DNA of 64,000 nt from Candidatus Magasanikiibacteriota bacterium (GCA_023246755.1 JAHFHU010000004.1:4214-68213); one strand, 5' to 3'; counted from the stretch's first letter, positions 4,824 to 34,266 are shown. Notes: a model not told the origin generated them from the sequence alone. A program made the numbers and translations.

Positions 4824-6272
4824 CTATTTTAGGCTGCTTTTTTCAGAACGATCAAATGCTGGCGCAACGAGTATCACATCCGTCGCATCTCGATATAACT
4901 CTTTCCATCCAGCTTTAATAAATGACTGCGCAATTGCTTTATTTTGAAACGATGCTGTTGGCAACATCGCGGTATTAATGTCATATTTTTTAAAAATTTC
5001 CGTCGCAACAGGTGCTCCTCCCGCCATAATTCGAAGCGACTCCGGGTAGGGCGCATTACCTTTCGCGTCTGCCCATTGTGGCATGTGTCCATCAACAAAA
5101 ATTGGAAGGCCGGGCACAAACCATTCAATGTAACCCCCCGTCTCAAATTCATTATATAACCGGATCTGCGGCTGTTTTTCAAAAAGACTCGCCAAAAAAA
5201 TAGTTGCACCGACGGGATAGGTAACTCGTGAATGCAATGCAAATAAACTCCACACTGCAACAAAAATTATTTCCATGCTGATAACCCACGAACCGATGCG
5301 TTTAATTTTTTCGTGTGACAAACGCAACCGCGTCATTAACCATGCGAACTCTGACGATGCCTCTAGCACACACTCGAAACCAATAATGGCAAAGTATGGC
5401 CAAAATTTAACAGCATGCCCATATGCATAAAGAAAAAATAGTGTTGCCGCAATCAGACCCCATGCACGTGCGCGGACGAGCAATGCGCACGCACAAACAA
5501 CAAAAATAATCACCAAGATTGAAATATATTCAAGCCGCGTAAAACCAGAAACCATTTCAGAAATATTTTTCATGTACGGCGATGCTTGCGTTCGATAAAT
5601 TTCGGAATATAAATGTATGCCAAATGGATTCACCAGTGTCGCTAAACAGCAAAGTCCGATAATTGTCGCATGGATACGTGAACACGTTCGTTGAACAATT
5701 GAAAAAAAACCAACGATTGCAATAAAGATTATTCCAAACACAACACCGCCATACATGTTTGCCCATAACAAAAAAATAAGCGGGGCCGCATATAAAATAT
5801 TTTTATGCTGAACTCGATGCTGCCATGCGTAGACAATGAAAGCAAAGAACAAAAATGAAATTACCTGTGGACGTAAACCTAAAAATGAACGTGTCGATGC
5901 AAGAAATAAAAATCCGAGACTCTGTTGAAATAGCGTCTGCGCTCGAAAAGCAAATGTCGCACCGATCAAACCTATGGCGAGACAGAAAAATGGTAGCAGC
6001 GCTGATCGCCCTCCTATCATCCATAATTTTGCCATGAGAACATTTGTGAACCACTCATGATCATACCAAATGAAACCCGGTAGCGTCAGCGAGAGCGTAT
6101 CAACCCGCATCAATGTGTGATGCTCCAAAATCCACCGACCGACACTTAAATGCCACCAAAAATCATACTCATACAAAATCGAGGTACAATAACTCAATAA
6201 CGCGACGTTGGCGATTGCAAAAAAAATCTTAAGCAATAAATCTTTATTTCGTGTAAAAAAATTCCAGCTCAT
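4824..6272 (-). CDS. polytopic integral membrane protein with C-terminal soluble domain (GT-C-like glycosyltransferase fold suspected)
   Basis: 482 aa with more than 10 hydrophobic helices and a hydrophilic C-terminal 120 aa. No specific motif recognised. Confidence 0.45.
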   Translation of the reverse strand: MSWNFFTRNKDLLLKIFFAIANVALLSYCTSILYEYDFWWHLSVGRWILEHHTLMRVDTLSLTLPGFIWYDHEWFTNVLMAKLWMIGGRSALLPFFCLAIGLIGATFAFRAQTLFQQSLGFLFLASTRSFLGLRPQVISFLFFAFIVYAWQHRVQHKNILYAAPLIFLLWANMYGGVVFGIIFIAIVGFFSIVQRTCSRIHATIIGLCCLATLVNPFGIHLYSEIYRTQASPYMKNISEMVSGFTRLEYISILVIIFVVCACALLVRARAWGLIAATLFFLYAYGHAVKFWPYFAIIGFECVLEASSEFAWLMTRLRLSHEKIKRIGSWVISMEIIFVAVWSLFALHSRVTYPVGATIFLASLFEKQPQIRLYNEFETGGYIEWFVPGLPIFVDGHMPQWADAKGNAPYPESLRIMAGGAPVATEIFKKYDINTAMLPTASFQNKAIAQSFIKAGWKELYRDATDVILVAPAFDRSEKSSLK

Positions 6273-9236: not shown

Positions 9237-10466
9237 TTAAATGCCAAGTGCGCGATATAACTTCTCTATTTTTTCCTGTGCTCGCATGTGCAACTTGTCA
9301 ACTATTTTGGCGCTTTTAAGTAGTTTTTGAAAAAACTCTTCTGCGTTCATCTCAGAATGCTCACGATAAAATTTAGGAAATTCATCAACAAAACGAGCAG
9401 CATCTGGATCACGAACAACACCTGTTTTTGCAAGTGTTGTTCGTATTTCTTCATCACTCATCGTGGTTTTTAGATCCTCAAAGCCTTTTTTTATAGTGGG
9501 TGCGTAGCGCTGTAAAATCCGTTCGGGTTCATTTTTAAAAACACCATCAAGCATAAGTATATCAGCCGCTGTCAAATGCTCTTTTAAGAGCGTAATGTCT
9601 GTCAAATCATAGTTACGTCCTGTTTCGATCTTATGGTAAGCAACTAACGCAGGATGCGAAAGATTTACGAGTCGACCACTTGTGGTTGTATATATGCGCC
9701 CGTGAGCAAAATATTCTGCGGGAAACGTTGTGCCGCTGTAAGGAATGGTTTTTGTGCCGTCTTCATTTGATACGATAATATGGAGATCAATAAAATTCAA
9801 TTTATCGTGCTCATTATTTATCATCCCATTAGGATTGATCCGTGCAATTTGCAGTTCACTCAAAGCACGCTCTGCAATCTCGACAGCAGATACAACCTCA
9901 ACACACCGCTGCGTCTCTGTGTAACGAGTACGGTCAGAAAAAATAATTGTGTACCCACGAGTTGCCAACTGTTTTTCTAATGCGGGCAAATTTTCAACAG
10001 AAATACTCATGTCAACATCCTTGTGATCACGAATGAATGAGCCGTCACCTTGTAAAAGTGAAATATTAATTGCGCCATCAAGCCACCAACCGAATTCAGC
10101 CCCTTCCATCAGTTCTCCTAAATCATTCAAACGTTTTTCAATTTCAATTTTTCGTTCTGTGGTTGGTCCCTGATATTTTTTTATTGTTTCATCAAAATTC
10201 GCACCGCTAAAATCATCAAATTTTTTAAGAAACTGGGTTTTAAAGTTCTGTCCCGAATGCTCCAAGGCACGCCGCACACGTTCAGAATTTGCTTGTTCGG
10301 ATAAACCTACCGGATCAATTTGCACAACACTCTCAACGGCTTCGACTTCACTAGCTATTCCATCAAAATTTTTTGGATCCTGTGTCATATAATAAAACAA
10401 AATATTTGTGTCATCGTACGCTCTACACCCCAATTTTCCAAACCCCCTTCTCCAAAAATGCTTCAA
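9237..10466 (-). CDS. nucleotidyltransferase-fold protein with ANT(2'')/Lnu-like core domain flanked by N- and C-terminal extensions; start codon uncertain (10466 or an internal ATG near 10390)
   Basis: Central segment FGWWLDGAINISLLQGDGSFIRDHKDVDMSI parallels the ANT(2'')-Ia region W-I-GGGWAIDARLG...RKHDDIDL (Gly-rich nucleotide loop plus the h-D-h-D metal motif). Lies immediately downstream of the Fic gene in the same orientation. Confidence 0.55.
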   Translation of the reverse strand: MKHFWRRGFGKLGCRAYDDTNILFYYMTQDPKNFDGIASEVEAVESVVQIDPVGLSEQANSERVRRALEHSGQNFKTQFLKKFDDFSGANFDETIKKYQGPTTERKIEIEKRLNDLGELMEGAEFGWWLDGAINISLLQGDGSFIRDHKDVDMSISVENLPALEKQLATRGYTIIFSDRTRYTETQRCVEVVSAVEIAERALSELQIARINPNGMINNEHDKLNFIDLHIIVSNEDGTKTIPYSGTTFPAEYFAHGRIYTTTSGRLVNLSHPALVAYHKIETGRNYDLTDITLLKEHLTAADILMLDGVFKNEPERILQRYAPTIKKGFEDLKTTMSDEEIRTTLAKTGVVRDPDAARFVDEFPKFYREHSEMNAEEFFQKLLKSAKIVDKLHMRAQEKIEKLYRALGI

Positions 10467-11295
10467 TGGTTTGACGATGCGCTTTGTTGATCAAGTTGGA
10501 ATGAGAAATTTTTTGTATTTTTGCAAAATCAACAAGTGTTATGATTTTTTTGCCTTCCAAATAGGCGAGCCGCTTATGGTAACTATTTGTTAGTGCTTTA
10601 CCAACAATTTCTTCCATAATCGTGGTCATGCCTCCTTGATCAAACTCCTTAAACGCATCATAATATTTTGTTCGATCAATAAATTTGATATTGATCGGCA
10701 CAAATCCCTCTCGGATCAGCTGGTAGTTATTAATCACGCGCCCAATACGACCATTCCCGTCGTTGAAGGGATGCAGATTTTCAAAAGTGAGGTGCAATTG
10801 CGCAATACGTTTAACAATGTTTTCATGCGCGCTGGCATGATACTGCGAAAACATTTTTACAAGACCGCTTTCAATTTCTTTTGGGGCCGGTGCAATGTGA
10901 CTACCAACACGAACAAATTCATTGCCGCGACGAAATCGCCCCGCAATATCATCCTGAATGTTTGAAATGAGCATTTTGTGGAGTGACAAAAGTGTGTCAG
11001 AATTCAACTCCTGCTCCTTGGCGCGTTTTTCAATATACGAAACGACGCGTGCCAAATTTTTTGCTTCAAATAATTCGCGCTCCGAAATATACCGATCCAA
11101 ATCAATTTGCAACAAAATCTTTTCGGTTTCTTCGAGCGTCAGCGTGCTATTTTCAATTGCATTCGAGTTATATACCTGTTCGGAAACTTCCGCCTCGCTC
11201 ACCAGTGCAATAAGCGCCTCTTTTCCAGCAGCCGCACGGTAATACCGCTCTCGCAATGCATTGATTTTATTAAAAACTGCAGAAATTTTTGCCAT
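10423..11295 (-). CDS. fic: Fic family protein (AMPylase) with N-terminal inhibitory helix and C-terminal winged-helix DNA-binding domain
   Basis: Fic motif HPFNDGNGRIGR. Inhibitory motif SNAIEN matching [ST]xxxE[GN] at residues about 50-55, as in class II Fic. C-terminal ITLVDFAKIQKISHSNLINKAHRQTIEAFLEKGV is wHTH-like. I prefer ATG at 11295 (MAKISAV...) over the upstream GTG at 11319. Confidence 0.8.
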   Translation of the reverse strand: MAKISAVFNKINALRERYYRAAAGKEALIALVSEAEVSEQVYNSNAIENSTLTLEETEKILLQIDLDRYISERELFEAKNLARVVSYIEKRAKEQELNSDTLLSLHKMLISNIQDDIAGRFRRGNEFVRVGSHIAPAPKEIESGLVKMFSQYHASAHENIVKRIAQLHLTFENLHPFNDGNGRIGRVINNYQLIREGFVPINIKFIDRTKYYDAFKEFDQGGMTTIMEEIVGKALTNSYHKRLAYLEGKKIITLVDFAKIQKISHSNLINKAHRQTIEAFLEKGVWKIGV

Positions 11296-11376
11296 ATGTC
11301 TTAGTATAGCAGTTTTCACGGTTTTGTCAATATAATCGTGAAAAACTAGAAATTAATGACATTTTTCACGGTTTTG
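11296..11376 (-). promoter_or_regulatory. sigma70-type promoter of fic (-35 TTGACA at 11325-11330, -10 TATACT at 11303-11308, 16-nt spacer) embedded in an array of TTTTCACG operator-like repeats
   Basis: Minus-strand read: TTGACAaaaccgtgaaaactgcTATACTaagacATATG. The 14-mer ttttcacggttttg is exact at 11313-11326 and 11363-11376. An inverted copy cgtgaaaa sits at 11337-11344. The start codon is only about 7 nt after the -10 element, implying a leaderless mRNA. Confidence 0.6.
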
Positions 11377-13332: not shown

Positions 13333-13956
13333 ATGTTTCTCGAACTGCAGAATATCGGGTGGAACCTCCTCAGCCTGAGTCTGGTGGCGACGATCTCCTT
13401 TAGCATGACGGGTGCATGGGGCATTGCCAAACAAGCAAAAAACATCCTCGCAACTAGATCAGGCGCTTCCGTGAACACAAAGTGGAACATTGTGTTTGCG
13501 ATCATGTACGCAACGTGGTTCGTGTATGGCGCCGAAACACACAGCATGGCTATTATGGTGCAGAGCATCATGCGTGTACCCTTCATTGCGATCGTACTCG
13601 TACGGTTGTGGCAATTCAAGGGCTATACGCGAAGTGAAATCAGCATGGTCGTGTTGTTTACAAGCGCGTTCCTCGTCGTTAGCACCACTGTTTACATTGA
13701 CACCGCCTTCACCATCGTTTCATATCTCGGTGCCGCAGCGGCTAGTTTGCAGCCACTTGAGATTTGGAAAAAACGCTCTGTTGGGGTTGTCTCGATCGAA
13801 ATGATGTGGATTTACCTAGCGAGCGTCATGTTTTGGCTCTTCTACGGACTGGTTGCTCACGACATGCGCGTGTTTGGGATGTCAATTCCTTACATCACAA
13901 TCTATAGCACAACAATTGGCTTGTACTACCATTTCCGCAACAATCCAAACAACTAA
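13333..13956 (+). CDS. membrane protein with internal duplication, possible PQ-loop/SWEET-like transporter
   Basis: 207 aa, about 7 TM. Two related halves each ending in a Q-containing loop followed by W..Y-rich helices (KQAKNIL...WFVYG and LQPLEIWKK...WLFYGL). Confidence 0.35.
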   Translation: MFLELQNIGWNLLSLSLVATISFSMTGAWGIAKQAKNILATRSGASVNTKWNIVFAIMYATWFVYGAETHSMAIMVQSIMRVPFIAIVLVRLWQFKGYTRSEISMVVLFTSAFLVVSTTVYIDTAFTIVSYLGAAAASLQPLEIWKKRSVGVVSIEMMWIYLASVMFWLFYGLVAHDMRVFGMSIPYITIYSTTIGLYYHFRNNPNN

Positions 13957-13996
13957 CCGCCCGCGCTGATGTCACATCTTTGCGGGTGTTTTTTAT
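13957..13996 (+). terminator. Rho-independent terminator after 13333-13956 gene
   Basis: cccgc...gcggg stem with inner gatgtcacatc palindrome, followed by tgttttttat. Confidence 0.6.
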
Positions 13997-14088
13997 GTTT
14001 GGCACGACGTAGTGAACGACGTCGTGAAGGAAGTCAGAACCATTTGTGCAGAGAATTTATACTCGCGCACGAGGGTGGAAAAAATTAA

Positions 14089-15483
14089 TTAATGCATTTC
14101 TGCCTCTGTTTTCGCAGCAAGTTCTAATATTTTTTTACTGTACTCAACCGGATATTGTTTTCCATCTTTCTCATCTATTTTTTTAAGATAAGCAGGCAAC
14201 TTTTCAATTTCGAGTAAGCAATACTTTCGAATATCACTGAGTTCGGGGAGAGGTTTTACCAGTTTTCCATGACGTAACATCTCTATCAAAAGGGGTTCAC
14301 CGGACATTGCTTCTCCATCTAATCCAATAACGTCTTTTACCATGAAGCCGTCTTTGTCATAGATACGAAAAACTTGTTTTTTTCCCGGAAAACTTCTTTT
14401 ATTTTTTGCAAGCTTCATTACAGGTCTTATCTTTGTACCATCTTGTAATTCTGCAAGCTTGTAAACAACCTCCAGTTTAGGCGCATCAGGAGATGTGACT
14501 AATTCTGTAATAAGTAGAAAGCCATCGCATGGCGTCTTTTTTTGAATAATCTTACTAATTTCTTGTTCATCCAAATTCCCTGAAAGCAGTATTTTAATAT
14601 CTTTGAACCCCTTTGAATCCAACCTGCTGCGTGCATACTTTGTACGCTTAATCAAATCACCACTATCAATATACAACATTGCAACTTTTCCACCACTCTT
14701 GCGCATTTCCTCTGAGACGATAATAAGATTATCAACACCTTTCTCAAAATCATAGGTGTCTACAAGAACCACAGCCTCATCATTTGGAAACTCACTAATA
14801 AATGCCCGCATTGCTTCTATTTCACTCGGAAATGATTTAATGAATGCATGTGTCAAGGCGTTTAATACTTTTTTTGGTGCTTCAAGTCCATACTTTTTCC
14901 AAAAAAATAGCTGCGATGAAGATGGATTGCCGCCAACCATGTAGAGGCCACGCATGCACTTTAAACTTGATTCAAATCCTTGAGAACGAGTTACAGGTAA
15001 AATAACCGGTTTACCTTGAGCAGCTAAAACGACACGAATATTTTTAGATGAAAATGTTGTATTGGAAGAAACAGCATTCACTAAATACGCATAAAATAAT
15101 TCCAACTGCCAAAGCGGCCCTGTAAATCGCATCACCGTTTCCCCTGGAAAAAATGGCGTCCCTTCTCTCAACGCAAAAATGTCAGATAAAAACTTGAACT
15201 TTTTTAGTCGCTCAGCCATGTGTTTATCAATGAGTCTATGCTTTTTGAGCGCAGCGATGTCTTCTTTTGAATATACCCAATGTGTCAAATCAGACAAAAC
15301 CTCTTCCAAACCCGAAAATATAAGAAACTTTCTTTTTGATGACATCTCTCTGACGGTCAAGTCATATGTTGCCACAATATTTTCCATACCCGCTTTCCGC
15401 CATGCCTTCCACATAGCAAAAGCACCAGCTTGTGTTAGTAGCGGAAGATCTGTTTCGTAAAACTTACTACTTTTTTTTGTCAT
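14089..15483 (-). CDS. nicotinate/nicotinamide phosphoribosyltransferase family protein (NAPRTase/NAMPT superfamily)
   Basis: N-terminal KFYETDLPLLTQAGAFAMWKAW parallels the TDxYxxTM motif of the family. AMLYIDSGDL and KILLSGNLDE correspond to the conserved RxDSGD and SGxLDE/GG-L-x-E blocks. Start placed at MTKKSS (15483), giving a 17-nt overlap with the upstream LOG gene. Confidence 0.7.
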   Translation of the reverse strand: MTKKSSKFYETDLPLLTQAGAFAMWKAWRKAGMENIVATYDLTVREMSSKRKFLIFSGLEEVLSDLTHWVYSKEDIAALKKHRLIDKHMAERLKKFKFLSDIFALREGTPFFPGETVMRFTGPLWQLELFYAYLVNAVSSNTTFSSKNIRVVLAAQGKPVILPVTRSQGFESSLKCMRGLYMVGGNPSSSQLFFWKKYGLEAPKKVLNALTHAFIKSFPSEIEAMRAFISEFPNDEAVVLVDTYDFEKGVDNLIIVSEEMRKSGGKVAMLYIDSGDLIKRTKYARSRLDSKGFKDIKILLSGNLDEQEISKIIQKKTPCDGFLLITELVTSPDAPKLEVVYKLAELQDGTKIRPVMKLAKNKRSFPGKKQVFRIYDKDGFMVKDVIGLDGEAMSGEPLLIEMLRHGKLVKPLPELSDIRKYCLLEIEKLPAYLKKIDEKDGKQYPVEYSKKILELAAKTEAEMH

Positions 15484-16231
15484 AAAATTCGTTAAGCACA
15501 CCTCTTTGTTGATCAATAACTTCTGAAAGGCGTGGCAATAATTCGCTTAGTGTAGTAAAATGCACGGCTTCTGATTCACCACGCACATTCTGCTGAGAGC
15601 CGGAGAGAACTTGGCTCTTACGGATGGCCATTTCTATGATCCGTCGATCATCCTCAGGCCAATCAATAAAAAATGCCACCGGGATAACTGGGTACTGAAT
15701 CGCATTGTCTGGTGTTTTTTTAGCCGCAGCAAGTGTTCTTTTCGCTGTTTCAATGTGCGCAAGCCCTTGAATGGCTTCTGCAATTGTGCCCAAAGTTGTA
15801 GCGGAAGACGGGACAAACAAATAAACGGCAACATGTGGGCGCTCAAGTTTATTTGTTATGTTAGGCACACCCTCAGCAAGAACATGCATGCTTTTTGTCA
15901 GATGACCCGTATTTTCAGTTGCTTCTTTGATGAAAGAAGGGCGCTGTGCAACATGAAACTCGACAATACCTCCATTTCTTCTACGCTCCCTTTGCTTTTT
16001 AGAAAAACCATTGGCTATTTCACCTGTATAAGTGCTAGCTAGTGCTGGTCCGGTATATAACACAGCATGCTTACTGCTTAAAAAACTACCAAGCTCTTGT
16101 AGTTTTTGACGGTAAGACCCATCAAGCTCATTAAAACTGCCCCCAAACATAGATATCGGAATGAGGCGTTTTTTTTCAAGAGGCTCTCTTGATTCCGAAA
16201 CTTCTGAGTTATTTACAAATTTTTCATGCAT
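15467..16231 (-). CDS. LOG family protein (TIGR00730-like nucleotide 5'-monophosphate nucleosidase / Rossmann SLOG)
   Basis: IPISMFGGSF...AVLYTGPA (GGS...YGGG-like N-terminal Rossmann), NGGIVEFHV, and HVAVYLFVPSSATTLGTIAEA matching the PGGxGTxxE LOG signature. Confidence 0.65.
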   Translation of the reverse strand: MHEKFVNNSEVSESREPLEKKRLIPISMFGGSFNELDGSYRQKLQELGSFLSSKHAVLYTGPALASTYTGEIANGFSKKQRERRRNGGIVEFHVAQRPSFIKEATENTGHLTKSMHVLAEGVPNITNKLERPHVAVYLFVPSSATTLGTIAEAIQGLAHIETAKRTLAAAKKTPDNAIQYPVIPVAFFIDWPEDDRRIIEMAIRKSQVLSGSQQNVRGESEAVHFTTLSELLPRLSEVIDQQRGVLNEFYDKKK

Positions 16232-16239
16232 AGAGTGAA

Positions 16240-17142
16240 TTAATCATAAATACTCTGTTCAATTATTTTTGATGCATCAACAAGCGTAATTCGTAATTTG
16301 TTAAGCACACTCTCAGGCAAATCAATTGTATTTGAAACTAGGATGCGTTCAAAACCGATATCTCGAATAATCGATACCGCAGAAAGCGAAAACAGTGCAT
16401 GAGTTACACATAAGTAAAACCGTGTAAAACCATGATCACGTAGTAGTTTGACAGCCTCAGAAATTGTGCCTCCTGTGTCGAGAATATCATCAACAATGAC
16501 CGCTGTAAAGCCGCGGACCTTGCCATTCAGCCCTGCAGCCTTGACATTACCCATTTCATCCCTCTTTTTGTCTAATACTACAATATTTTTGGTTTTAAGC
16601 TCCTTGCAAAAAAGCTGTGCCTGCTTTATCCCCCCAGTATCTGGTGATACAACGGTATACTCAGTATCAGTTAATTCTGACTTTAACTCTTGTGCAAAGA
16701 GTGGCATCATTGAAATATCGCTTATTTCAATAGGGCTGTCTTCAATTATTCGCTCACTGTGTAAATCAATCGTGATGATTTTTTGGCAGCCATTGCAAGC
16801 AAATGTCCGTAAAATCATCTGCACGGTGACCGGATCACCTTCTTTTTTCAAACGATCTTGTCGACTATAACCAAAATATGGAAGTACCAGCAGGATTCTT
16901 TCCGATCCAGAACGACGTAGCGTGTCTAACAGCAGATTGGTTGCAAAAAAATTTTCATTCGGCGGCCCTGCGTGACCCAAAACAACAGCATTTTTGTTAG
17001 TATGGTTCAGACTAACGAATAATTCTCCATTCGAAAACATCCTCCATTCTGTCGAGCTTAACCCGTTACCACCATTATCAACGATTTTTTTCTCGAGTGT
17101 GGTAGGTTTTTGTAAACAATAAAGTTTAGGACTCTCTCTCAT
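16240..17142 (-). CDS. prs: ribose-phosphate pyrophosphokinase (PRPP synthetase) family
   Basis: LPYFGYSRQDR (conserved in Prs as PYFGYARQDR). VIVDDILDTGGT is a PRPP-binding type I PRTase motif. 300 aa. Confidence 0.8.
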   Translation of the reverse strand: MRESPKLYCLQKPTTLEKKIVDNGGNGLSSTEWRMFSNGELFVSLNHTNKNAVVLGHAGPPNENFFATNLLLDTLRRSGSERILLVLPYFGYSRQDRLKKEGDPVTVQMILRTFACNGCQKIITIDLHSERIIEDSPIEISDISMMPLFAQELKSELTDTEYTVVSPDTGGIKQAQLFCKELKTKNIVVLDKKRDEMGNVKAAGLNGKVRGFTAVIVDDILDTGGTISEAVKLLRDHGFTRFYLCVTHALFSLSAVSIIRDIGFERILVSNTIDLPESVLNKLRITLVDASKIIEQSIYD

Positions 17143-17285
17143 ATTTATTGTATTTTATCACAGTAGTAAAACCTTTGCGAATTAATTTGGCTCTATAAAA
17201 CTTGGAAACCCAGATTTTTGCTTTGAGTAGAATGGATGACGTTATTAACGCGAAAACCGAGGCATTAACCTCGGTTCTTTCACGC

Positions 17286-17359
17286 TGGCACGGGCGGATG
17301 GAATCGAACCAACGCCAAAGGTTTTGGAGACCTTCGTTCTACCATTAAACTACGCCCGC
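17286..17359 (-). tRNA. tRNA-Trp (anticodon CCA)
   Basis: Reverse complement GCGGGCGTAGTTTAATGGTAGAACGAAGGTCTCCAAAACCTTTGGCGTTGGTTCGATTCCATCCGCCCGTGCCA. 7-bp acceptor stem (one G-U pair), anticodon loop CTCCAAA, T-loop GTTCGATTC, encoded CCA. Confidence 0.85.
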
Positions 17360-17360
17360 A

Positions 17361-18191
17361 TTATTTTTTAACATCTTCTTGCGATGGCCCCGTCGGCGGC
17401 GCAAGGACACCCGCGAATCGGAGGCCGAGAGTACTGTACACGACTAACGCAATAACTTCAACTAGCGGCGCAGGGCCGATGCCGAAAATAATACACAGAC
17501 CCCACAAAACGAGCGGCCCGGTTATCGCGGCCATGTGCAGCGCGAGCGCATCGCGAAACGACATCTGATCGTGGTATACAAATCGCTGCATCACCATGGC
17601 GAGCACACTCCATACGGAAATAAGCAATGTCGAAAATACCACGCTGCTCACAAAAAAATAAAGAAAAATCATGATGGTCACAACCGTGATTGCGGCCGCT
17701 TCATGATCAACGACGATCCCGCGAACATCGTCGAGATTAAATTTAAAATCGCCTCCATCGCGCCACAACATGCGCTCAACTTCCATTTCTTTTTTGTCTG
17801 CACTGGGCTGCGTCGCCCGTGCCACTACAATTTCAAGCGCCTCTTTTGAAATAAAAACCTGCGCCTGTGCCGGACGTGTTGGCGTCGAACTCACCGTATC
17901 AACCATCAAAACGAAATCACCATCAACCAAAGAATATGGCTGATCGACGCCGCTCACGGAAAAATCAGCCCCCTTTTTTTCAATCGTCACCCCGCGTGGA
18001 ATTTGCGCAAGCTTGTGACCCGCTGACCGAACCACGTCCGTTATATCCGGCGTGAACGCTAACGCCAAAAAAAACGCGACAAAAATATGCAGCTGAAAAA
18101 AATAGGAAAACTTAAGCGGCTCGCGTCGAGCTCCCGCGAGTGCCTGAATATTTGCAATGTACCCACGAAACTGACGTGGAAATTGCATCAT
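17361..18191 (-). CDS. hypothetical integral membrane protein
   Basis: 276-aa ORF with hydrophobic N-terminal segment and 4-5 C-terminal TM helices. Sits between rpmG and tRNA-Trp, where secE-nusG is found in many bacteria. Confidence 0.45.
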   Translation of the reverse strand: MMQFPRQFRGYIANIQALAGARREPLKFSYFFQLHIFVAFFLALAFTPDITDVVRSAGHKLAQIPRGVTIEKKGADFSVSGVDQPYSLVDGDFVLMVDTVSSTPTRPAQAQVFISKEALEIVVARATQPSADKKEMEVERMLWRDGGDFKFNLDDVRGIVVDHEAAAITVVTIMIFLYFFVSSVVFSTLLISVWSVLAMVMQRFVYHDQMSFRDALALHMAAITGPLVLWGLCIIFGIGPAPLVEVIALVVYSTLGLRFAGVLAPPTGPSQEDVKK

Positions 18192-18200
18192 ACGAAACGG

Positions 18201-18356
18201 CTATTTCGTTTCCTTGTGCGGCGTGTGCTTTGCGCAATACTTGCACAACTTTTTGAGCTCGAGACGATTTTTGAGCTTTTTCTTATTGCGTGATGTGTAG
18301 TGCGTAACGCGCTTGCAGACCGTGCATTCCATTTTGGCGAGATTGTCTTGTGACAT
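18201..18356 (-). CDS. rpmG: 50S ribosomal protein L33
   Basis: Not in the ORF track (51 aa). Translation MSQDNLAKMECTVCKRVTHYTSRNKKKLKNRLELKKLCKYCAKHTPHKETK has CxxC...CxxC zinc ribbon and the KETK C-terminus typical of L33. Confidence 0.85.
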   Translation of the reverse strand: MSQDNLAKMECTVCKRVTHYTSRNKKKLKNRLELKKLCKYCAKHTPHKETK

Positions 18357-18361
18357 AGTAG

Positions 18362-18622
18362 TTAATATATTTCTGTATAATCTTTTGCGAAATGTACTTT
18401 TGTGTGTTGATTGTTTTTCGGGACAGCAACCCGTAAATTAATGACACACTTTTCTTTTGCTTCCTCGATCGAAACGAAGAAAATCATCTGACTCATCGGA
18501 TCATAAACCGCAAAGTAATCGATCTCTTCTGCAGCACCCGCCAACCCTTGCGCATCAAACACGTTGCAACAGCTAATTCTCCTATCGCACCCTTCTCCTT
18601 TTTGTGCATAGAACCCATCCAT
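18362..18622 (-). CDS. hypothetical small protein (86 aa), 5 nt upstream of rpmG
   Basis: ORF only. No TM (so not SecE). Placement suggests co-transcription with rpmG. Confidence 0.3.
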   Translation of the reverse strand: MDGFYAQKGEGCDRRISCCNVFDAQGLAGAAEEIDYFAVYDPMSQMIFFVSIEEAKEKCVINLRVAVPKNNQHTKVHFAKDYTEIY

Positions 18623-18637
18623 TAATTTTGCTTCGAA

Positions 18638-18709
18638 AGCCGAAGGTGGGATTCGAACCCACGGTCTACGGTTTACAAAACCGTTGCATTACCGCTATGC
18701 TACTTCGGC
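18638..18709 (-). tRNA. tRNA-Thr (anticodon UGU)
   Basis: Reverse complement GCCGAAGTAGCATAGCGGTAATGCAACGGTTTTGTAAACCGTAGACCGTGGGTTCGAATCCCACCTTCGGCT. Anticodon loop TTTGTAA, T-loop TTCGAAT. CCA not encoded. Confidence 0.8.
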
Positions 18710-18789
18710 ATTTTACTTGCACATAGTATCATAGAACTCCCCATTTGGTCAATATAAAGTAGATCCACCCGCGTCGCTACTCAAACAAA

Positions 18790-18822
18790 TCAAAAATTAC
18801 CACCCCTTCGGGTGGTAATTTT
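18790..18822 (-). terminator. palindromic hairpin / terminator downstream of the minus-strand tRNA cluster
   Basis: aattaccaccc-cttcg-ggtggtaatt forms a perfect 11-bp stem, with T/A-rich flanks on both sides. Confidence 0.5.
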
Positions 18823-18825
18823 GTT

Positions 18826-18908
18826 TGGGTGGAGAAGGATTCGAACCTTCGAAGGCGAAAGCCAACAGATTTACAGTCTGCCGTGTTTGACCGCTTCACT
18901 ATCCACCC
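18826..18908 (-). tRNA. tRNA-Tyr (anticodon GUA), long variable arm
   Basis: Reverse complement GGGTGGATAGTGAAGCGGTCAAACACGGCAGACTGTAAATCTGTTGGCTTTCGCCTTCGAAGGTTCGAATCCTTCTCCACCCA. Anticodon loop CTGTAAA, class II variable arm. Confidence 0.8.
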
Positions 18909-19071
18909 ACATTTAATTTTTCTGTGGTTTCTGGTTATTTTTTGTGAGACTGCGCAGGCGCTGCGGGCCAGTGTCGCGCAGAGCGCGACGAGCAGCGCCG
19001 AGGAAGTTCTGAAATTTCTGCTGAGAAATTTCAGGTTGGTCTCACAAAAAATAACCAGAAACAGACACTGG
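18909..19071 (-). ncRNA. GC-rich highly structured spacer between tRNA-Thr(GGU) and tRNA-Tyr; candidate small RNA or processing element of unknown class
   Basis: 24-bp perfect long-range stem (gtttctggttattttttgtgagac at 18924-18947 pairs with gtctcacaaaaaataaccagaaac at 19038-19061) closes an 88-nt GC-rich interior. The interior holds nested hairpins gcgctgc..[gtcgcgc-aga-gcgcgac]..gcagcgc and ctgaaatttc-tgctga-gaaatttcag. Confidence 0.3.
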
Positions 19072-19144
19072 AGCCGTTGATCGGATTTGAACCGATGACC
19101 TACTCCTTACCATGGAGTTGCTCTACCAACTGAGCTACAACGGC
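19072..19144 (-). tRNA. tRNA-Thr (anticodon GGU)
   Basis: Reverse complement GCCGTTGTAGCTCAGTTGGTAGAGCAACTCCATGGTAAGGAGTAGGTCATCGGTTCAAATCCGATCAACGGCT. Anticodon loop ATGGTAA. Confidence 0.8.
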
Positions 19145-28202: not shown

Positions 28203-29654
28203 TTAATGCAAACTCTCAAATGAAATATCAAACATTGTGTCTTTCGTCACCATCGCATTCCAATCATACGCGCGATCACCAAAATTTTTTGATGATTCGG
28301 ATGGCGTGGCTGTTCGTACGTTTGTACCAAAATCAGCGTGAACCGTCAACTCAAATCCGTGCGTGCCGAGTTGTTTTTGAACAAGAAGGCCATAACGATG
28401 GTTCAAAATCTCCGCAACAACGGACGGTGCGAGCGCAATATCGATGGTCACCGTCGTGGTCTCACCCGGCTCGGTAAGAATAAACGATCCAATCACCGTG
28501 TGGCCGTCTTCTTGCGTCACATCCCACGCGCCCGGCGTTTTATCTTTGTGACTTTTCACCGAACCGGTCGCGTCCAAAAATTTTGTGTCAGCCGGAAAAT
28601 ACCACCGAGTGTACGTTCCATATCGCGTCGTACGCCAATCCAGCGTGCCTGTATTTTTATAGCGCATCGTTACCCGCCCGCGCCACTCGCCACTCGCAGC
28701 ATCCCGAAATACATCATATCGCATCGCGCGCTCCATCACCCGATCCGTTTTAAGACTGGCGAGATTTGCATCAACAAACATGACGCTGTCCGGCGTTCCT
28801 GATTTAAGTCGTCCACTCCACCCGAGCATGTCGAGATTGTTTTGAATTTTTGAATCACGATCGAAAATAATCACATGTCGTTCGTCGATGAGGCGCTCAA
28901 AATCACCAAGAACATTCCCCCATTGAAGTGGCGAAATGTGTTTGATACGCGAAACAAGTTCACTCGCGATCGCACCAATCACCGCCTTGCGCTCCGTTTT
29001 CGGAATACCTTGTTTGTGAAAATCAACCTCAACAGTCTGTTCGAGCAGGTCAGTAATATTTTCAGCAGTAAAAACTTTTCCGCCCGCAGTGACCGACCCC
29101 GTGTATTTCATAAGTGTTGTCAAAACTTCCGGCGTCACCCCAACAACCGTTTGAATCGCAGTCGCCTGCTGCCCATTCTCAAGTGTGTAAAAAGTAAGCG
29201 CATCTTGGCTCGCACGTGCAAAATCAGGCGACCAATTCGAATCACGAAAAAACCAGCGATCGATTAAATGATCTTTGATCGGTTGCGGCGCCGCGATCGG
29301 CGCAAGCGCGATTGCAGCACGATCAAGATTTTCGGTTCCATCGGTAAAAAGTGAAACCACCGCGCCATGATCAACGGTAACGACTCCGTACGAACCGATA
29401 AATCCGCCGCCCGGACGAATCTCGGTGTTATTGAGAAATAAAATGAGTATCGTGCGCGGCGTTTCCATCCCGAGCAATGCAGGGATCACCGCCGAACTCG
29501 CACCACTTCCACGGTGATCAAACGCTTTTGTTGCAACAAAATTCAACGCAGCAACATCGACGCGCGCCTGACGCACCAACCACCACGTACCATAGCCAAA
29601 TAATAAAAGTGCCCCGATGATACTACACAAAATTGTCGTGGTTCTCCGTGTCAT
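28203..29654 (-). CDS. DUF4012 domain membrane-anchored protein
   Basis: N-terminal TM, then ILILFLNNTEIRPGGGFIGSYG matches the DUF4012 core (LlqNnaElRptGGfiGsyg). Paired with GT2 as is typical. Confidence 0.75.
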   Translation of the reverse strand: MTRRTTTILCSIIGALLLFGYGTWWLVRQARVDVAALNFVATKAFDHRGSGASSAVIPALLGMETPRTILILFLNNTEIRPGGGFIGSYGVVTVDHGAVVSLFTDGTENLDRAAIALAPIAAPQPIKDHLIDRWFFRDSNWSPDFARASQDALTFYTLENGQQATAIQTVVGVTPEVLTTLMKYTGSVTAGGKVFTAENITDLLEQTVEVDFHKQGIPKTERKAVIGAIASELVSRIKHISPLQWGNVLGDFERLIDERHVIIFDRDSKIQNNLDMLGWSGRLKSGTPDSVMFVDANLASLKTDRVMERAMRYDVFRDAASGEWRGRVTMRYKNTGTLDWRTTRYGTYTRWYFPADTKFLDATGSVKSHKDKTPGAWDVTQEDGHTVIGSFILTEPGETTTVTIDIALAPSVVAEILNHRYGLLVQKQLGTHGFELTVHADFGTNVRTATPSESSKNFGDRAYDWNAMVTKDTMFDISFESLH

Positions 29655-31150
29655 AAATTTGTTTTAAATGCAGCACGTTTTTTTTGCGAAACATTAAACC
29701 CGAGATAGCGGCCAAACATGAGGCGCGTCGATGCATCGATCGCCGGCACCGCAGAAAAACAGATGAGTGAGATCGGCACAAGCACCCACTGAAGCAACAT
29801 GTAGACCCACGCGCGGCGTTTTGTTGCGTGCGGCGGACGCGGCAGCAAACGAAGCGACAGTATCATGCTACACACAAGCCCGCACATCGACGCAAACATC
29901 AGCCACTCCAAAATGTGCGGTGTATTTTGAAACAGCACCGTGCTGCGAACCGAGTCTCCCGCAACGAGTAGCGGCAATCGGCCCAGCACCAAAATAAAAA
30001 TTGATGTGGTGCACCACGAAAATTTTCCCTCCCACTGACTCCATAATCGATGCAACCGCTTGCCAAGCGGAATTTCAGGATGCAGCGGTAAATTCCAGAG
30101 CAGAAACGGAATATGCTCAACGCCCCACGCCCATCGACGCTGTTGTTTGTATAAATTGATGATGCTTTTTTTGAGTGACGGATCATTCACCGTGTCCATC
30201 GACACCGGAATATACATCGGCACGACTTCGTAGTTGCCGCCATATTTTAACCAGCACTGAAAAAAAATTCGCGAATCTTCGCTGACGATATTTTTCTGCC
30301 AAAAACCAACATCAACGAGCGCTTGGAAACTCATGCTGTGCGACGAAAATGTTACCACGAGTTCGGGACGCCCAAATCGAAATAACATAAAAAAAGTCGT
30401 ACCAAACGCCATGATGCGAAGCGGCGCCGCAGACTCCCAAATATTATTGTTATACAGCGCGACAGGTTGGAATGATGCGCGCGTTGGGTTCGGATGGTTT
30501 GCGTATAGATAGGTAAGATGTGCAAAATAATGGGGGTGAACAATCGTGTCGATATCAAACGCAGAAACAATGACGTTACGATATGAAATTCCGCGCGCAT
30601 CAAGCCATGCCTTCACGACATAACCCGCATAATGCAAGTTCGAACCCTTGCCCGGAATTTCGTCCGGCACATCTTTGGGATGCACGGTAATTATGAATGA
30701 ATAAAAAAAGTGTTCGAACTCTTTTTGTAAACGCTTTGCAAATGAATTGAAATGTTCCTGCTGTCGCTCCTCACCCGCGAGTACGATAATCATCCGCTGT
30801 GCGGGAAATGAAGAAGTCGCGAGCGCCTCAATCGTTGTCCGAACAACCGCCTCATCTTCGTTGTACACTGGTAAAAAAACGCAATGCAAATACGAATTCG
30901 ATTTTTCACCGAGTGTTGCTAATTTATCCATCCAGTTCGTTCGCAAGGTCAGGCGAAATGAACGCCAAGAAAATAATAAATAGAGAATAAAATATCCAAC
31001 ACGAAACACCCAGTACAAATCAAAAAGGATGATAAAATAAATCACCCAGAGCGGCCGAATAAAACTCAATATGGTCGCGCTTAAAAGCACGGTCCACACC
31101 AAAGCTCCGGGTAAAATTTCATAGATTCGATAGCGTGTGTAGTTGTTCAT
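29651..31150 (-). CDS. processive family 2 glycosyltransferase (cellulose/chitin synthase-like, QxxRW)
   Basis: VFLPVYNEDEAV (DXD region), QQRRWAWG (QxxRW), multiple N- and C-terminal TM helices. 499 aa. Confidence 0.75.
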   Translation of the reverse strand: MNNYTRYRIYEILPGALVWTVLLSATILSFIRPLWVIYFIILFDLYWVFRVGYFILYLLFSWRSFRLTLRTNWMDKLATLGEKSNSYLHCVFLPVYNEDEAVVRTTIEALATSSFPAQRMIIVLAGEERQQEHFNSFAKRLQKEFEHFFYSFIITVHPKDVPDEIPGKGSNLHYAGYVVKAWLDARGISYRNVIVSAFDIDTIVHPHYFAHLTYLYANHPNPTRASFQPVALYNNNIWESAAPLRIMAFGTTFFMLFRFGRPELVVTFSSHSMSFQALVDVGFWQKNIVSEDSRIFFQCWLKYGGNYEVVPMYIPVSMDTVNDPSLKKSIINLYKQQRRWAWGVEHIPFLLWNLPLHPEIPLGKRLHRLWSQWEGKFSWCTTSIFILVLGRLPLLVAGDSVRSTVLFQNTPHILEWLMFASMCGLVCSMILSLRLLPRPPHATKRRAWVYMLLQWVLVPISLICFSAVPAIDASTRLMFGRYLGFNVSQKKRAAFKTNL

Positions 31151-32163: not shown

Positions 32164-34266
32164 ATGAGCGAACGCATCGAGCTCCGCGTCCACGACTTCC
32201 TTGCTGAAGGCCGTGACGAATCAAAATCCCATGTTTTACTAGAAATTACACAGCCCGCTGCGAATGAGGTCGCAACGCATGGTCATTTTTTTGCCATCGC
32301 CGAGCTTGTGGGCGCAACTCCAAAAACCATACAAATGGTCCGCTCGTGGATCGAATTTGCAATTGAAAGTTACTACAAGAGCACCCCGACAAACATTGAA
32401 TCCCATTTTGAAACGATTCTCGGGCAACTCAACACACAAAGCTCGCTCTATTTAAAACAACACGCACACGAAGAAATTAACATTGCCGTTGCCGCAACAT
32501 GCAACTCGACGCTTTACCTCGCAACGCATGGCCGCCCGGCTGCGCTGCTCTTCTACAAAAAAAATGAGGGGTGGCAGTCACTGGACATGATTGATCCGGA
32601 TGCGGCTGATATTCCCGGCCAGCTTTTTTCAAATGTTATCAACGGTGTAATGCGTGTCGATGATCGATTTTTACTTGCGACACCGCGTGTCACCGAATTT
32701 TTTACGGCGGATCGGCTCGCGAAAATTTGTGAGGGCAAATCAATGCAAGAAGTCAATGATCACATGCTCAGAATTTTAAGCGATCTTTCGTCGGAATATT
32801 CATTTGGTGGCGTATGGCTTCGACTTGTGCGCGCATTTGATGAAACAAAAGAGATCATGCAACAAAAAATCCCGGCAGGCTCGATTGTACGACCCGAAAA
32901 AAAATCCGATGTTTCAATGGATGATCTCATGAAAAAAACGAGAACGACCGCTGAAATTCTCGCGCCCCCAATTCTGACGATTCCAAAAGATAAAATTATC
33001 ACCAACTCGTTGATGCTCATCCAATCAAACGCAATTCGCGCTGGAAAATTTCTCACGAGTGCTGTGCGTTCTACGACTCACGCGATTTCGTCAAAAAAAA
33101 GTTCACCGACCACAGAACGCATCACGCCAAAACAATTTTTAAATACAACAAAAAATAGTCTTGGTTTGCGTTTCAGTGCGATGCCAAAAAAACGAAAATA
33201 TGTTTTGGTCGCAGCAATTACGACGATGCTGCTTGCGGTAATTATCGTCGGAATCATCGCCTACTCACGATCTCGCACCGCGCAAACACAAAGTGTTCAA
33301 ACGCAACTGACGGTGATTCGCGATACACTACGCTCCGCAAATGAATCGTTCACCTATCAAAATGAATCGGCCGCACGCACGACGCTCAGCCAAGCGAAAA
33401 ATCTTTTGAGCGCACTTCCAGAATCTACCAAAACAGCGCCCGATGGCACCGCACTACAAACCGAAATAACCGATGCGACCAATAAAATTTTGCACATTAC
33501 GTCAGTCACACCCATTACTCCAGCTTTTGCATCCGCACTCACTATTCGAGATATCACGACAATGGGAACGAGCGCGATCGCACTTTCAACAACCGGTGAT
33601 ATCGTTTATTTAAAAGATGGTCTCAAAAAAATAGCGACGGTTGATGCGGCGACAGAAAAAATTTTTTCCGATGAATCGAGCAAGCGTCTGTTCGTCATGA
33701 CAAAAAATCACACATTTAAAACAATCGCGCTCGATGGAAATAAAACGACGGATGTCGTGGTAAATTTCACACCTGAAAATACTCACACAAAAATTGCAAA
33801 CATTTATTCAGACCGTCTGTATACCTATGACAGCGAAACGAATATGATCTATCGCTATGAACATGCGGGCGATGCGTATACGAACGGTAAGCGCTGGATC
33901 GTCGACAAAAGTGGAAATCCGACAAATATAGCTGATTTTGTTGTTGATAATTCGATTTGGATGCGTTCGACGACCGGTGGAATTCTTAAATATACTGCGG
34001 GAAAATTGCAAACATTTAAAATTAGTAATCTCGAACCAGACACAACACACATTGATCAAATTTTGACGAGTGCCTCAGATAAAATTTATTTTCTCGATTC
34101 ACAAAATCATCGCATCGTGCAGACCGAACGCGATGGAAAACTTATCACACAATTTGTCTATCCAGAATCCACGCACATAACGCGCATCGCTCTTGATAAA
34201 ACCGAAACGACCGCCACCGGAATTTCCGATGACGGTCGCGTCGTACAATTTGCTTTGAGCAAATAA
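32164..34266 (+). CDS. large single-pass membrane protein: cytoplasmic N-terminal domain, TM at about residue 345, extracytoplasmic beta-rich C-terminal domain
   Basis: 700 aa. TM segment YVLVAAITTMLLAVIIVGIIAY. N-terminal FFAIAELVG...LYLATHGRPAALLF...VMRVDDRFLLATP weakly resembles a PP2C/SpoIIE-like phosphatase fold. Confidence 0.45.
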   Translation: MSERIELRVHDFLAEGRDESKSHVLLEITQPAANEVATHGHFFAIAELVGATPKTIQMVRSWIEFAIESYYKSTPTNIESHFETILGQLNTQSSLYLKQHAHEEINIAVAATCNSTLYLATHGRPAALLFYKKNEGWQSLDMIDPDAADIPGQLFSNVINGVMRVDDRFLLATPRVTEFFTADRLAKICEGKSMQEVNDHMLRILSDLSSEYSFGGVWLRLVRAFDETKEIMQQKIPAGSIVRPEKKSDVSMDDLMKKTRTTAEILAPPILTIPKDKIITNSLMLIQSNAIRAGKFLTSAVRSTTHAISSKKSSPTTERITPKQFLNTTKNSLGLRFSAMPKKRKYVLVAAITTMLLAVIIVGIIAYSRSRTAQTQSVQTQLTVIRDTLRSANESFTYQNESAARTTLSQAKNLLSALPESTKTAPDGTALQTEITDATNKILHITSVTPITPAFASALTIRDITTMGTSAIALSTTGDIVYLKDGLKKIATVDAATEKIFSDESSKRLFVMTKNHTFKTIALDGNKTTDVVVNFTPENTHTKIANIYSDRLYTYDSETNMIYRYEHAGDAYTNGKRWIVDKSGNPTNIADFVVDNSIWMRSTTGGILKYTAGKLQTFKISNLEPDTTHIDQILTSASDKIYFLDSQNHRIVQTERDGKLITQFVYPESTHITRIALDKTETTATGISDDGRVVQFALSK

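Follow-up and report, generated by a model that had tools for sequence, protein, structure and literature searches.

Three tightly packed genes in a 64,000-nucleotide stretch of DNA (hereafter the window) from a Candidatus Magasanikiibacteriota bacterium (GCA_023246755.1, JAHFHU010000004.1:4214-68213), an organism of the Patescibacteria or Candidate Phyla Radiation (CPR), encode a phosphoribosyl pyrophosphate (PRPP) synthetase (Prs), a protein modelled as a highly diverged, LOG-like member of the SLOG fold, and a divergent protein of the nicotinate phosphoribosyltransferase (NAPRT) family. The reading favoured here, which is held tentatively and may well be right, is that they form a chromosomal housekeeping operon in which a genuine Prs is combined with a two-gene SLOG/NAPRT-like module devoted to PRPP-centred salvage. 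An initial annotation of the same DNA had described three co-oriented, closely spaced genes, and this arrangement is real, with all three on the minus strand:

16240..17142, minus strand: prs open reading frame (ORF), 300 aa
15467..16231, minus strand: middle, SLOG-fold ORF, 254 aa
14089..15483, minus strand: NAPRT-like ORF, 464 aa from its ATG; an alternative TTG start at 15516 gives 475 aa

The ATG at 15483 is the start used for the NAPRT-like gene in public gene calls.

Family and fold of the three proteins

By its sequence the first gene, which the initial annotation had described as a PRPP synthetase homologue, encodes a diverged but ordinary cellular, class-I-type PRPP synthetase. The product scores 227.6 bits against TIGR01251 (ribP_PPkin; cut-off 113) and matches the Pfam families Pribosyltran_N, Pribosyltran and Pribosyl_synth in a two-domain architecture, while the narrower Prs subfamily and equivalog models all remain below their cut-offs (e.g. 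NF002320, 203.7 versus 297). Its best match in the PDB is the Prs of Bacillus subtilis (1DKR, E 8e-41), and the segments FSNGE, RQDR (SRQDR), DLH, DKKR and DDILDTGGT align to the enzymes of B. subtilis and Escherichia coli, DKKR corresponding to the flexible K-R loop and DDILDTGGT to the loop for ribose-5-phosphate.

The middle ORF is far more elusive in homology searches. It has no Pfam or NCBIfam match at E<=1, a phmmer search of the PDB returned only noise, and a word-indexed search of 5.8 billion proteins retrieved only the protein itself; when 1.84 billion representatives were scanned exhaustively with HMMER, four relatives were recovered. With the alignment of this small subfamily, a profile search of the PDB gave just a spurious 28-residue heptosyltransferase match, and a metagenome scan for window-type SLOG genes, based on the patterns of alignment A6, ended with zero confirmed matches. 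A profile search using an alignment of 18 SLOG proteins encoded beside NAPRT-like genes returned 6 proteins. The link to LOG proper is transitive and structural. In an hhalign comparison the window subfamily was aligned to a member of PF18306 (L003:2967-3677) with 96.2% probability and an E-value of 2e-9; PF18306 itself gives 13 bits on two of the relatives (P0122 and P0124), against a cut-off of 26.3, and does not match the window protein. The AlphaFold2 (AF2) model built on the 5-sequence alignment reached a pLDDT of 79.7 and a pTM of 0.83, compared with a pLDDT of 33 for the single-sequence model. Searched against the PDB with Foldseek, the structure matched the SLOG superfamily exclusively (LOG, PpnN, the Moco carrier protein MCP, DprA and TRPM N-terminal domains), with LOG proteins as the best structural matches and a best E-value of 8e-6; the top entries 1WEH, 1YDH, 1T35, 5ZBK, 5WQ3, 7W2I and 9HS2 had a probability of 1.0 and target TM-scores of 0.6-0.75.

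Across the 18 aligned SLOG neighbours, 12 of which match PF18306 and 8 the LOG Pfam family PF03641, residues G61, G148, T149 and E152 do not vary, and G148, T149 and E152 make up the LOG signature GTxxE (GTIAE in the window protein). This alignment as a whole was matched to E. coli PpnN with 92.5% probability. In a MAFFT alignment (A3), E152 falls on PpnN E264 and R131 on PpnN R241; the corresponding R99 and E122 are the proposed catalytic pair in the LOG protein of Corynebacterium glutamicum, CgLOG (PMC4979012). Depending on that alignment, R131 and E152 are a candidate catalytic pair, equivalent to the LOG Arg and Glu. Compared with LOG and PpnN (PF03641, TIGR00730), the window protein shares the SLOG Rossmannoid fold, a GGS after strand 1 (residues 30-32) and the Arg and GTxxE Glu, and differs by an insertion of about 50 residues and by two altered motifs. 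GGxxGxM is replaced by G-P-A-L-A-S-T-Y, and PGGxGT by P-S-S-A-T-T-L-G-T; in the latter region (P141-SSATTL-G148-T149-IA-E152) the PGG part is replaced and three residues are inserted. The motif VPSSATTLGT reported in the initial annotation is indeed present, at residues 140-149. Its reading of the motif was correct at superfamily rank, the protein being LOG-like in fold, Arg/Glu pair and GTxxE, but the assignment to the LOG family does not hold by profile: all LOG, TIGR00730 and Pfam models failed, including the LOG/TIGR00730 search whose failure had been named beforehand as grounds for refutation.

The third protein belongs to the NAPRT family, in which, as far as its sequence tells, it falls within a clade specific to CPR and DPANN whose substrate pocket has been remodelled. 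The Pfam domains NAPRTase_N and NAPRTase_C are matched above cut-off, NF006696 covers the full length (E 1.5e-104), and the NAPRT of Enterococcus faecalis (2F7F) is matched at E 9e-41. Nevertheless, the scores are below those of all NCBIfam equivalogs (NF006696, 350.2 versus 503; NF009131, 309.9 versus 330; TIGR01513, 289.6 versus 297.4), and the catalytic domain PF04095, which is matched in the canonical homologues found by the same search, is not. Among the 120 best homologues listed, nearly all that carry a name come from Patescibacteria or DPANN, and the combination of N- and C-terminal domains without PF04095 is common to most of them. Unlike the few canonical NAPRTs in that list, the clade has neither the first Arg of RRTQG nor the GTSN motif, and the Arg of xRxDSGD is missing along with the GVGT loop.

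Loci were gathered from species-level GTDB genomes (79), JGI metagenomes (80) and viral contigs (14). In a neighbour-joining tree of the 173 sequences, all 62 of the 62 sequences without the Arg of the canonical class are placed in one exclusive clade, with zero canonical sequences inside. Positions conserved at 90-100% in the 111 canonical sequences and lost from the clade are D18, Y20, T23, M24, E131 and R165, followed by T189-S190-N191, G208-T209, R271 and G323-V324-G325; Y20, R165 and R271 are 100% conserved in the canonical set. Through the alignment to 2F7F and the structure paper on human NAPRT, Y20 is the counterpart of human Y21, stacked against the pyridine ring, R165 that of R171, in contact with the phosphate of PRPP, and R271 that of R318, described as a "major player" for its contacts with ATP, the ribose and the carboxylate of nicotinate (PMC4442680). 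Human Y21, L170, R171, H213, S214, R318 and K396 map to G20, V164, T165, H212, A213, Y271 and K342 of the window protein, so that of these seven active-site residues just two, the His and the Lys, are preserved. Both classes retain the phospho-His H212, K342, D242-T243, D273-S274-G275, E306, T326 and P366-G367-K-K369-Q370-V-F-R373 (PGKKQVFR), as well as the DTY and DSG motifs, and about 40 invariant residues are kept in the divergent clade overall.

The lost pocket positions are conserved within subfamilies and different between them, the pocket of the window subfamily being G20, Y131, T165, S189-S190-Q191, A213 and Y271. Such a pattern of apparently specificity-determining positions fits active, diversified enzymes and not decay, and random decay of the pocket was down-weighted for this reason. 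The protein cannot safely be called a nicotinate phosphoribosyltransferase. The earlier label of a NAPRTase/NAMPT-family enzyme is retained for its NAPRT half, on the basis of NAPRTase_N and NAPRTase_C, and dropped for NAMPT, since PF18127, PF04095 and similarity to Namat, a NAMPT-family protein, are all lacking. The narrower identification as a nicotinate phosphoribosyltransferase is made doubtful by the NCBIfam cut-offs, the missing PF04095 and the lost active-site residues.

Namat and Adps are the enzymes of NARP1, in which each forms a phage-specific clade (bioRxiv 10.1101/2024.02.11.579819; PMC12774641), and it had been asked whether the window genes follow the logic of this pathway of NAD reconstitution. 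In that case the Prs homologue would pyrophosphorylate ADP-ribose (ADPR) in the manner of Adps, and the phosphoribosyltransferase would couple the resulting ADPR-PP to nicotinamide in the manner of Namat, with the SLOG protein supplying or processing ADPR. There is a superficial match in architecture, a Prs-family gene standing beside a gene of the type II pyridine phosphoribosyltransferase family, and the loss of the 5-phosphate-binding Gly loop and of the R171 equivalent could in principle open the pocket. The proposal is nonetheless barely credible in the light of the comparison with the NARP1 operons of phages mistaenkt (L087) and vB_PaeM_B55 (L088). The window Prs scores 144 bits against E. 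coli Prs and 153 bits against a Kuenenbacteria Prs, versus 56-71 bits against the two phage Adps, so that by bit scores, with two Adps compared, it groups with cellular Prs; it keeps DDILDTGGT and not the shortened DDICDGGxT loop which both Adps carry. The phosphoribosyltransferase gave blastp E-values above 0.01 with the two Namat proteins. Namat (PF18127, PF04095) needs a core Arg, R306 (bioRxiv 10.1101/2024.02.11.579819; PMC12774641), and the position of this residue, R311 in NAMPT, is Tyr in the window protein. Moreover, when 50,697 phage records were searched with tblastn, 24 were returned, none of those listed being a NARP1 operon, and relatives of the divergent clade were not found in viral contigs. 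The context is that of a housekeeping chromosome, not of a phage or mobile element, and the defence-system profiles of PADLOC gave no match apart from a 14.9-bit phosphoribosyltransferase match for Prs. The analogy accordingly fails on the type of Prs, on homology to Namat, on the core Arg and on context, and the window has an extra SLOG gene.

Gene neighbourhood of the divergent clade

The pairing of SLOG and NAPRT-like genes recurs well beyond the window. Adjacency, which in the GTDB set means a separation of up to 134 nt with both genes nearly always on one strand, was counted for SLOG genes and for PncA-like genes, the latter being isochorismatase-family genes, as verified for one representative:

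GTDB, SLOG gene beside a divergent NAPRT-like gene: 12 of 41 loci
GTDB, SLOG gene beside a canonical NAPRT gene: 0 of 38 loci
GTDB, PncA-like gene beside a canonical NAPRT gene: 13 of 38 loci
GTDB, PncA-like gene beside a divergent NAPRT-like gene: 0 of 41 loci
JGI, SLOG gene beside a divergent NAPRT-like gene: 7 of 16 loci
JGI, SLOG gene beside a canonical NAPRT gene: 0 of 63 loci
JGI, PncA-like gene beside a canonical NAPRT gene: 9 of 63 loci
JGI, PncA-like gene beside a divergent NAPRT-like gene: 0 of 16 loci

The Fisher p-values are 2e-4 (SLOG) and 2e-5 (PncA) for GTDB and 4e-6 (SLOG) for JGI, where the PncA association is not significant (0.19); the two sets are not shown to be non-redundant and overlap in at least three loci (e.g. 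L104/L008 and L109/L026, probably the same lineages). Across the 79 GTDB and 79 JGI loci, PncA and SLOG pairing are mutually exclusive. One of the closest known systems is PncA-PncB, the Preiss-Handler salvage gene pair of a nicotinamidase and a nicotinate phosphoribosyltransferase, with which the window shares the family of the large protein, a type II phosphoribosyltransferase with NAPRTase_N and NAPRTase_C, the phospho-His and the K396-equivalent Lys, and a small, co-oriented, directly adjacent partner gene which could supply the base substrate. The partner is here a SLOG/LOG-like protein instead of an isochorismatase-family amidase, and the transferase differs from PncB in its scores below the NAPRT cut-offs and in the absence of the Y21, R171, S214 and R318 equivalents and of the GVG loop.

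The window-type SLOG subfamily is represented at six loci, and at five of them a NAPRT-like gene follows directly downstream. The sixth (L186 1380..7156, protein P0125) has no NAPRT-like neighbour; its flanking genes encode a polytopic membrane protein of 679 aa and a protein of 989 aa that carries a GxGxxG Rossmann motif, both lacking a precomputed Pfam match and similarity to NAPRT or Prs. The closest genome locus, in a Candidatus Komeilibacteria, encodes a NAPRT-like protein of 60% identity, and at this closest relative a bona fide PF18306 SLOG cluster 4 gene is found directly downstream instead. Start and stop codons of the SLOG and NAPRT-like genes overlap, or are separated by gaps of <=10 nt, at many related loci. 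The prs gene is also found elsewhere beside the pair: in a Kuenenbacteria-like lineage it lies directly upstream of the NAPRT-like gene (L026), or in the order prs, NAPRT-like, SLOG, NAPRT-like on one strand (L109). The order in L109 differs from that of the window, which argues for functional recruitment of prs and not for shared ancestry of the arrangement, and from the recurrence it can be argued that PRPP or ribose-5-phosphate is the shared metabolite.

A chance juxtaposition of three unrelated housekeeping genes in a compact genome has to be weighed here. CPR genomes are gene-dense, prs is found by the pair in just two lineages, and the scans for promoters and terminators performed no better than on shuffled sequence. 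Nonetheless, SLOG adjacency is limited to one NAPRT clade in both sets of loci, at least three of which are shared, and the genes recur in different orders, in tandem duplications and with overlapping start and stop codons. For the SLOG/NAPRT-like pair chance is contradicted, and for the locus as a whole it is very improbable.

Two or three NAPRT-like paralogues occur in several genomes, often in tandem. Tandem arrays are seen in L109 (4050..8633; prs, NAPRT-like, SLOG, NAPRT-like) and L114 (2258..6305; SLOG, NAPRT-like, SLOG, NAPRT-like), doubled NAPRT-like genes in L033, L071 and L143, and up to three loci per metagenome-assembled genome, as in JAUWOX01 (L009, L032 and L038) and Buchananbacteria bin-902 (L078 and L086). 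The copies in L033, L109 and L114 belong to different pocket subfamilies, which may point to heterodimers, and the pairs of L071 and L143 to the same group.

Other neighbours recur as well. Split PPDK_N and PEP-utilizers (dikinase-like) genes lie within three genes of a divergent NAPRT-like gene at about 7-10 loci (among them L013 5297..6379; L014 3818..4768; L018; L028; L015 4621..5367), and TrmB-family regulators are found nearby at 10 loci. A Fic-domain gene is situated three genes downstream of the window operon (10423..11319, minus strand), and in another locus (L185 155..1213) a Fic gene immediately precedes a SLOG/NAPRT-like pair of the window type; this association may be a recurrent one.

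Viral contigs carry only canonical NAPRT with PncA, and a phage origin of the divergent clade was rejected on this basis. The contigs in question are large phage contigs from IMG/VR (L090-L103, 47-424 kb) with a canonical, Arg-class NAPRT; 13 of the 14 have an isochorismatase/PncA-like gene within 3.5 kb, and 12 have it within 1.7 kb. Judged from gene content, these phages carry a Preiss-Handler salvage pair that differs from both NARP1 and NARP2.

Proposed working of the operon

In the favoured reading of a PRPP-centred salvage operon, the SLOG protein would act as an N-ribohydrolase of the LOG/PpnN type, splitting a nucleotide into free base and ribose-5-phosphate. Prs would convert ribose-5-phosphate and ATP into PRPP and AMP, and the NAPRT-like protein would transfer the phosphoribosyl group from PRPP to a base in an ATP-coupled, phospho-His-dependent reaction. 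The last protein appears still equipped for phospho-His/ATP coupling, as it keeps the phospho-His, the K396-equivalent Lys, DTY, DSG and PGKKQVFR. A pyridine is the probable base, but not necessarily nicotinate: the loss of the carboxylate-binding Arg, the exchange of PncA for SLOG and the subfamily-specific pockets all make the nicotinate label doubtful. Were AMP a substrate of the SLOG enzyme, the AMP that Prs sets free could itself be turned into ribose-5-phosphate, and the net reaction would be ATP to PRPP and adenine.

Several observations weigh against this proposal. A LOG-type hydrolase and a phosphoribosyltransferase acting on the same base would constitute a futile cycle, so that, if both are active, they would have to act on different nucleotide species. 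In the SLOG protein the Gly-rich phosphate loop is lost (TGP for TGG; PSSATTLGT for PGGxGT), the profile of the window subfamily alone is matched to PpnN with a probability of 0.1%, and the residue equivalences derive from one MAFFT alignment (A3) and a 5-sequence AF2 model. The NAPRT-like protein has no equivalents of Y21, R171, S214 and R318, no GT before the His, no TSN and no GVG loop; the known mode of binding PRPP or nicotinate may therefore not apply to it, or it may be no transferase. Furthermore, SLOG genes adjoin only about one third of the divergent NAPRT-like loci, and prs adjacency is rare, being confined to the window and one Kuenenbacteria-like lineage (L026, L109).

The scheme first put forward was one of self-contained NAD salvage, in which a LOG enzyme frees ribose-5-phosphate from scavenged nucleoside monophosphates, Prs makes PRPP, and a true NAPRT or NAMPT forms nicotinate mononucleotide (NaMN) or nicotinamide mononucleotide (NMN). 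What survives of this recycling of ribose phosphate into NAD salvage is a PRPP-linked function, suggested by the recurrence of prs in two lineages; the NAPRT/NAMPT step is not supported as assigned. The full-length NAPRT-family match, the retained H212 and K342 and the need of CPR and DPANN organisms, in which the clade is widespread, for a pyridine salvage enzyme all speak for the scheme as a whole. However, it is unlikely, given a protein that falls below every NAPRT equivalog cut-off and is without PF04095, that has Tyr at the R318 position, variable across the clade, and that has lost Y21, R171, S214 and the GVG loop. In addition, the clade is never paired with PncA, as canonical NAPRTs are, and several paralogues with different pockets per genome are unexpected for a single housekeeping NAPRT.

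Alternatively, the NAPRT-like protein could be a pseudoenzyme or an ATP- or nucleotide-sensing partner, the SLOG protein being the sole enzyme or itself a mere sensor, and the adjacency of prs reflecting co-regulation. More than a dozen canonical residues, conserved at 90-100%, are lost with few clade-wide replacements, the overlapping start and stop codons suggest stoichiometric co-production, and non-catalytic SLOG binders (MCP, DprA and TRPM domains) are among the fold matches; sensor roles have been predicted for SLOG proteins (PMC9503650, PMC6459960). Against this, the pocket is conserved within subfamilies, the invariance of H212, K342, DTY, DSG, E306 and PGKKQVFR looks like retained chemistry, and the SLOG protein keeps the LOG Arg/Glu pair. 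We consider this explanation distinctly improbable.

A wider claim concerns the family itself: the "NAPRTs" of CPR and DPANN could constitute a distinct, diversifying enzyme family, present in several pocket variants and often in more than one copy per tiny genome, in which a dedicated LOG-like SLOG partner replaces PncA; supplied by Prs, it would serve an undescribed PRPP-dependent pathway for salvage or exchange of bases or nucleotides. This is a genuine possibility, though on balance a doubtful one. Pairing of SLOG domains with a phosphoribosyltransferase, or their connection to NAD-salvage genes, has been described for the YpsA clade (PMC6459960), and SLOG domains have been predicted to process NAD and ADPR derivatives (PMC9503650). 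The YpsA-clade pairs reported by Burroughs, Aravind and co-workers involve a generic phosphoribosyltransferase domain, whereas the present ones join LOG-like SLOG proteins (cluster 4 and a diverged offshoot) to one specific CPR/DPANN clade of the NAPRT family; the SLOG proteins beside other divergent NAPRT-like genes belong to cluster 4 (PF18306, LDcluster4), to PF03641 or to both. A literature search, which did not cover the founding SLOG paper, found no description of a pairing between cluster-4/LOG-like SLOG and CPR/DPANN NAPRT-family proteins, and likewise none of the altered pocket of the divergent clade.

Operon anatomy, genomic context and meaning

The boundaries and junctions of the operon comprise the following features:

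17253..17276, minus strand: hairpin AACCGAGG-ttaatg-CCTCGGTT, then TT, read from the sequence directly after tRNA-Trp (17286-17359)
17152..17181, minus strand: promoter-like TTCGCA-18 nt-TAAAAT with TG before the -10, 9/12 matches, ending 10 nt before the prs ATG
15467..15483, minus strand: SLOG/NAPRT-like overlap, with the SLOG stop TAG at 15469-15467 and the NAPRT-like ATG at 15483-15481
13957..14088, no strand assigned: convergent intergenic region at the downstream end of the operon, with an 8-bp hairpin at 14003-14026

The hairpin after tRNA-Trp is the likely end of the tRNA transcript and hence the upstream boundary of the operon; its T tract is too short for detection by the terminator scan. 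The only promoter-like site upstream of prs is that at 17152..17181, which is suggestive only, as scan counts of promoter-like sites and terminators in the region are no better than those of shuffled sequence. No Shine-Dalgarno sequence is visible upstream of the prs ATG, and these signals suggest a leaderless or near-leaderless prs mRNA. Read from the sequence, the gap separating prs from the middle ORF measures 8 nt (16232-16239) and not the 9 nt initially given; the 17-nt overlap reported for the other junction is correct with the ATG start, becoming 50 nt with the TTG start, and suggests translational coupling. At the downstream end, the region provides the opposing plus-strand gene with a GC hairpin and, after it, a T6 tract, and the scan found no canonical minus-strand terminator there. 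No internal terminator was seen within the trio. With promoter and terminator scans at the level of shuffles, co-transcription of the three co-oriented genes is inferred, not shown, and is probable from their layout. Identical contigs with the same three genes occur in other metagenomes.

An A8 run (15471-15478, minus strand) lies exactly within the overlap of the SLOG stop and the NAPRT-like start, and the loss of one A from it in the mRNA would join the two frames. A programmed -1 frameshift at A AAA AAG was considered and rejected, a -1 shift not entering the NAPRT frame.

The neighbours of the operon are housekeeping genes, encoding triosephosphate isomerase (TIM), ribosome recycling factor (RRF), MreB, translation initiation factor IF-2, aminoacyl-tRNA synthetases, ComEC and ClpP. 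Among the 44 other ORFs scanned in the window, none was identified as nadD, nadE, nadM, pncA or a pentose-phosphate gene, a result that holds for these 64 kb and does not extend to the whole genome. Convergent with the NAPRT-like gene, and followed by the GC hairpin and T6 terminator, is a plus-strand gene (13333..13956) for a 207-aa multi-pass membrane protein with an MtN3/SWEET repeat (PF03083, 25.4 bits, cut-off 23.7), which could be a small-molecule transporter. On the other side, a cluster of four tRNA genes (17286..19144, minus strand; Thr-GGT, Tyr, Thr-TGT and Trp) is broken up by an ORF of 86 aa that weakly matches PD-(D/E)XK (18362..18622) and by a DUF1189 membrane protein gene (17361..18191). 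Further away, a leucyl-tRNA synthetase of 1144 aa (40895..44329, minus strand) has an unusual architecture: besides the editing domain it contains a NUDIX insertion (aa 288-401, E 2e-18) and, at aa 609-712, a domain of the alpha/beta-hydrolase type (Ser_hydrolase). Three large ORFs have no Pfam match at E<=1e-4 (60361..63981, 1206 aa; 32164..34266, 700 aa; 29651..31150, 499 aa), and a fourth has none at E<=1e-3 (4824..6272, 482 aa).

CPR bacteria and DPANN archaea rely on salvage to obtain cofactors and nucleotides, and metabolic reconstructions read the NAPRT-like gene as the entry point of NAD salvage. The residue patterns described here are a warning that the hundreds of homologues found should not simply inherit the name NAPRT. 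The SLOG/NAPRT-like pair consists of two small soluble proteins which can be directly expressed and assayed, and the question is therefore testable. Should the NAPRT-like proteins prove to be a distinct family, reconstructions of NAD salvage in CPR and DPANN would be wrong at this step, and both the supply of pyridine nucleotides and the recycling of ribose phosphate in ultra-small cells would need rethinking.

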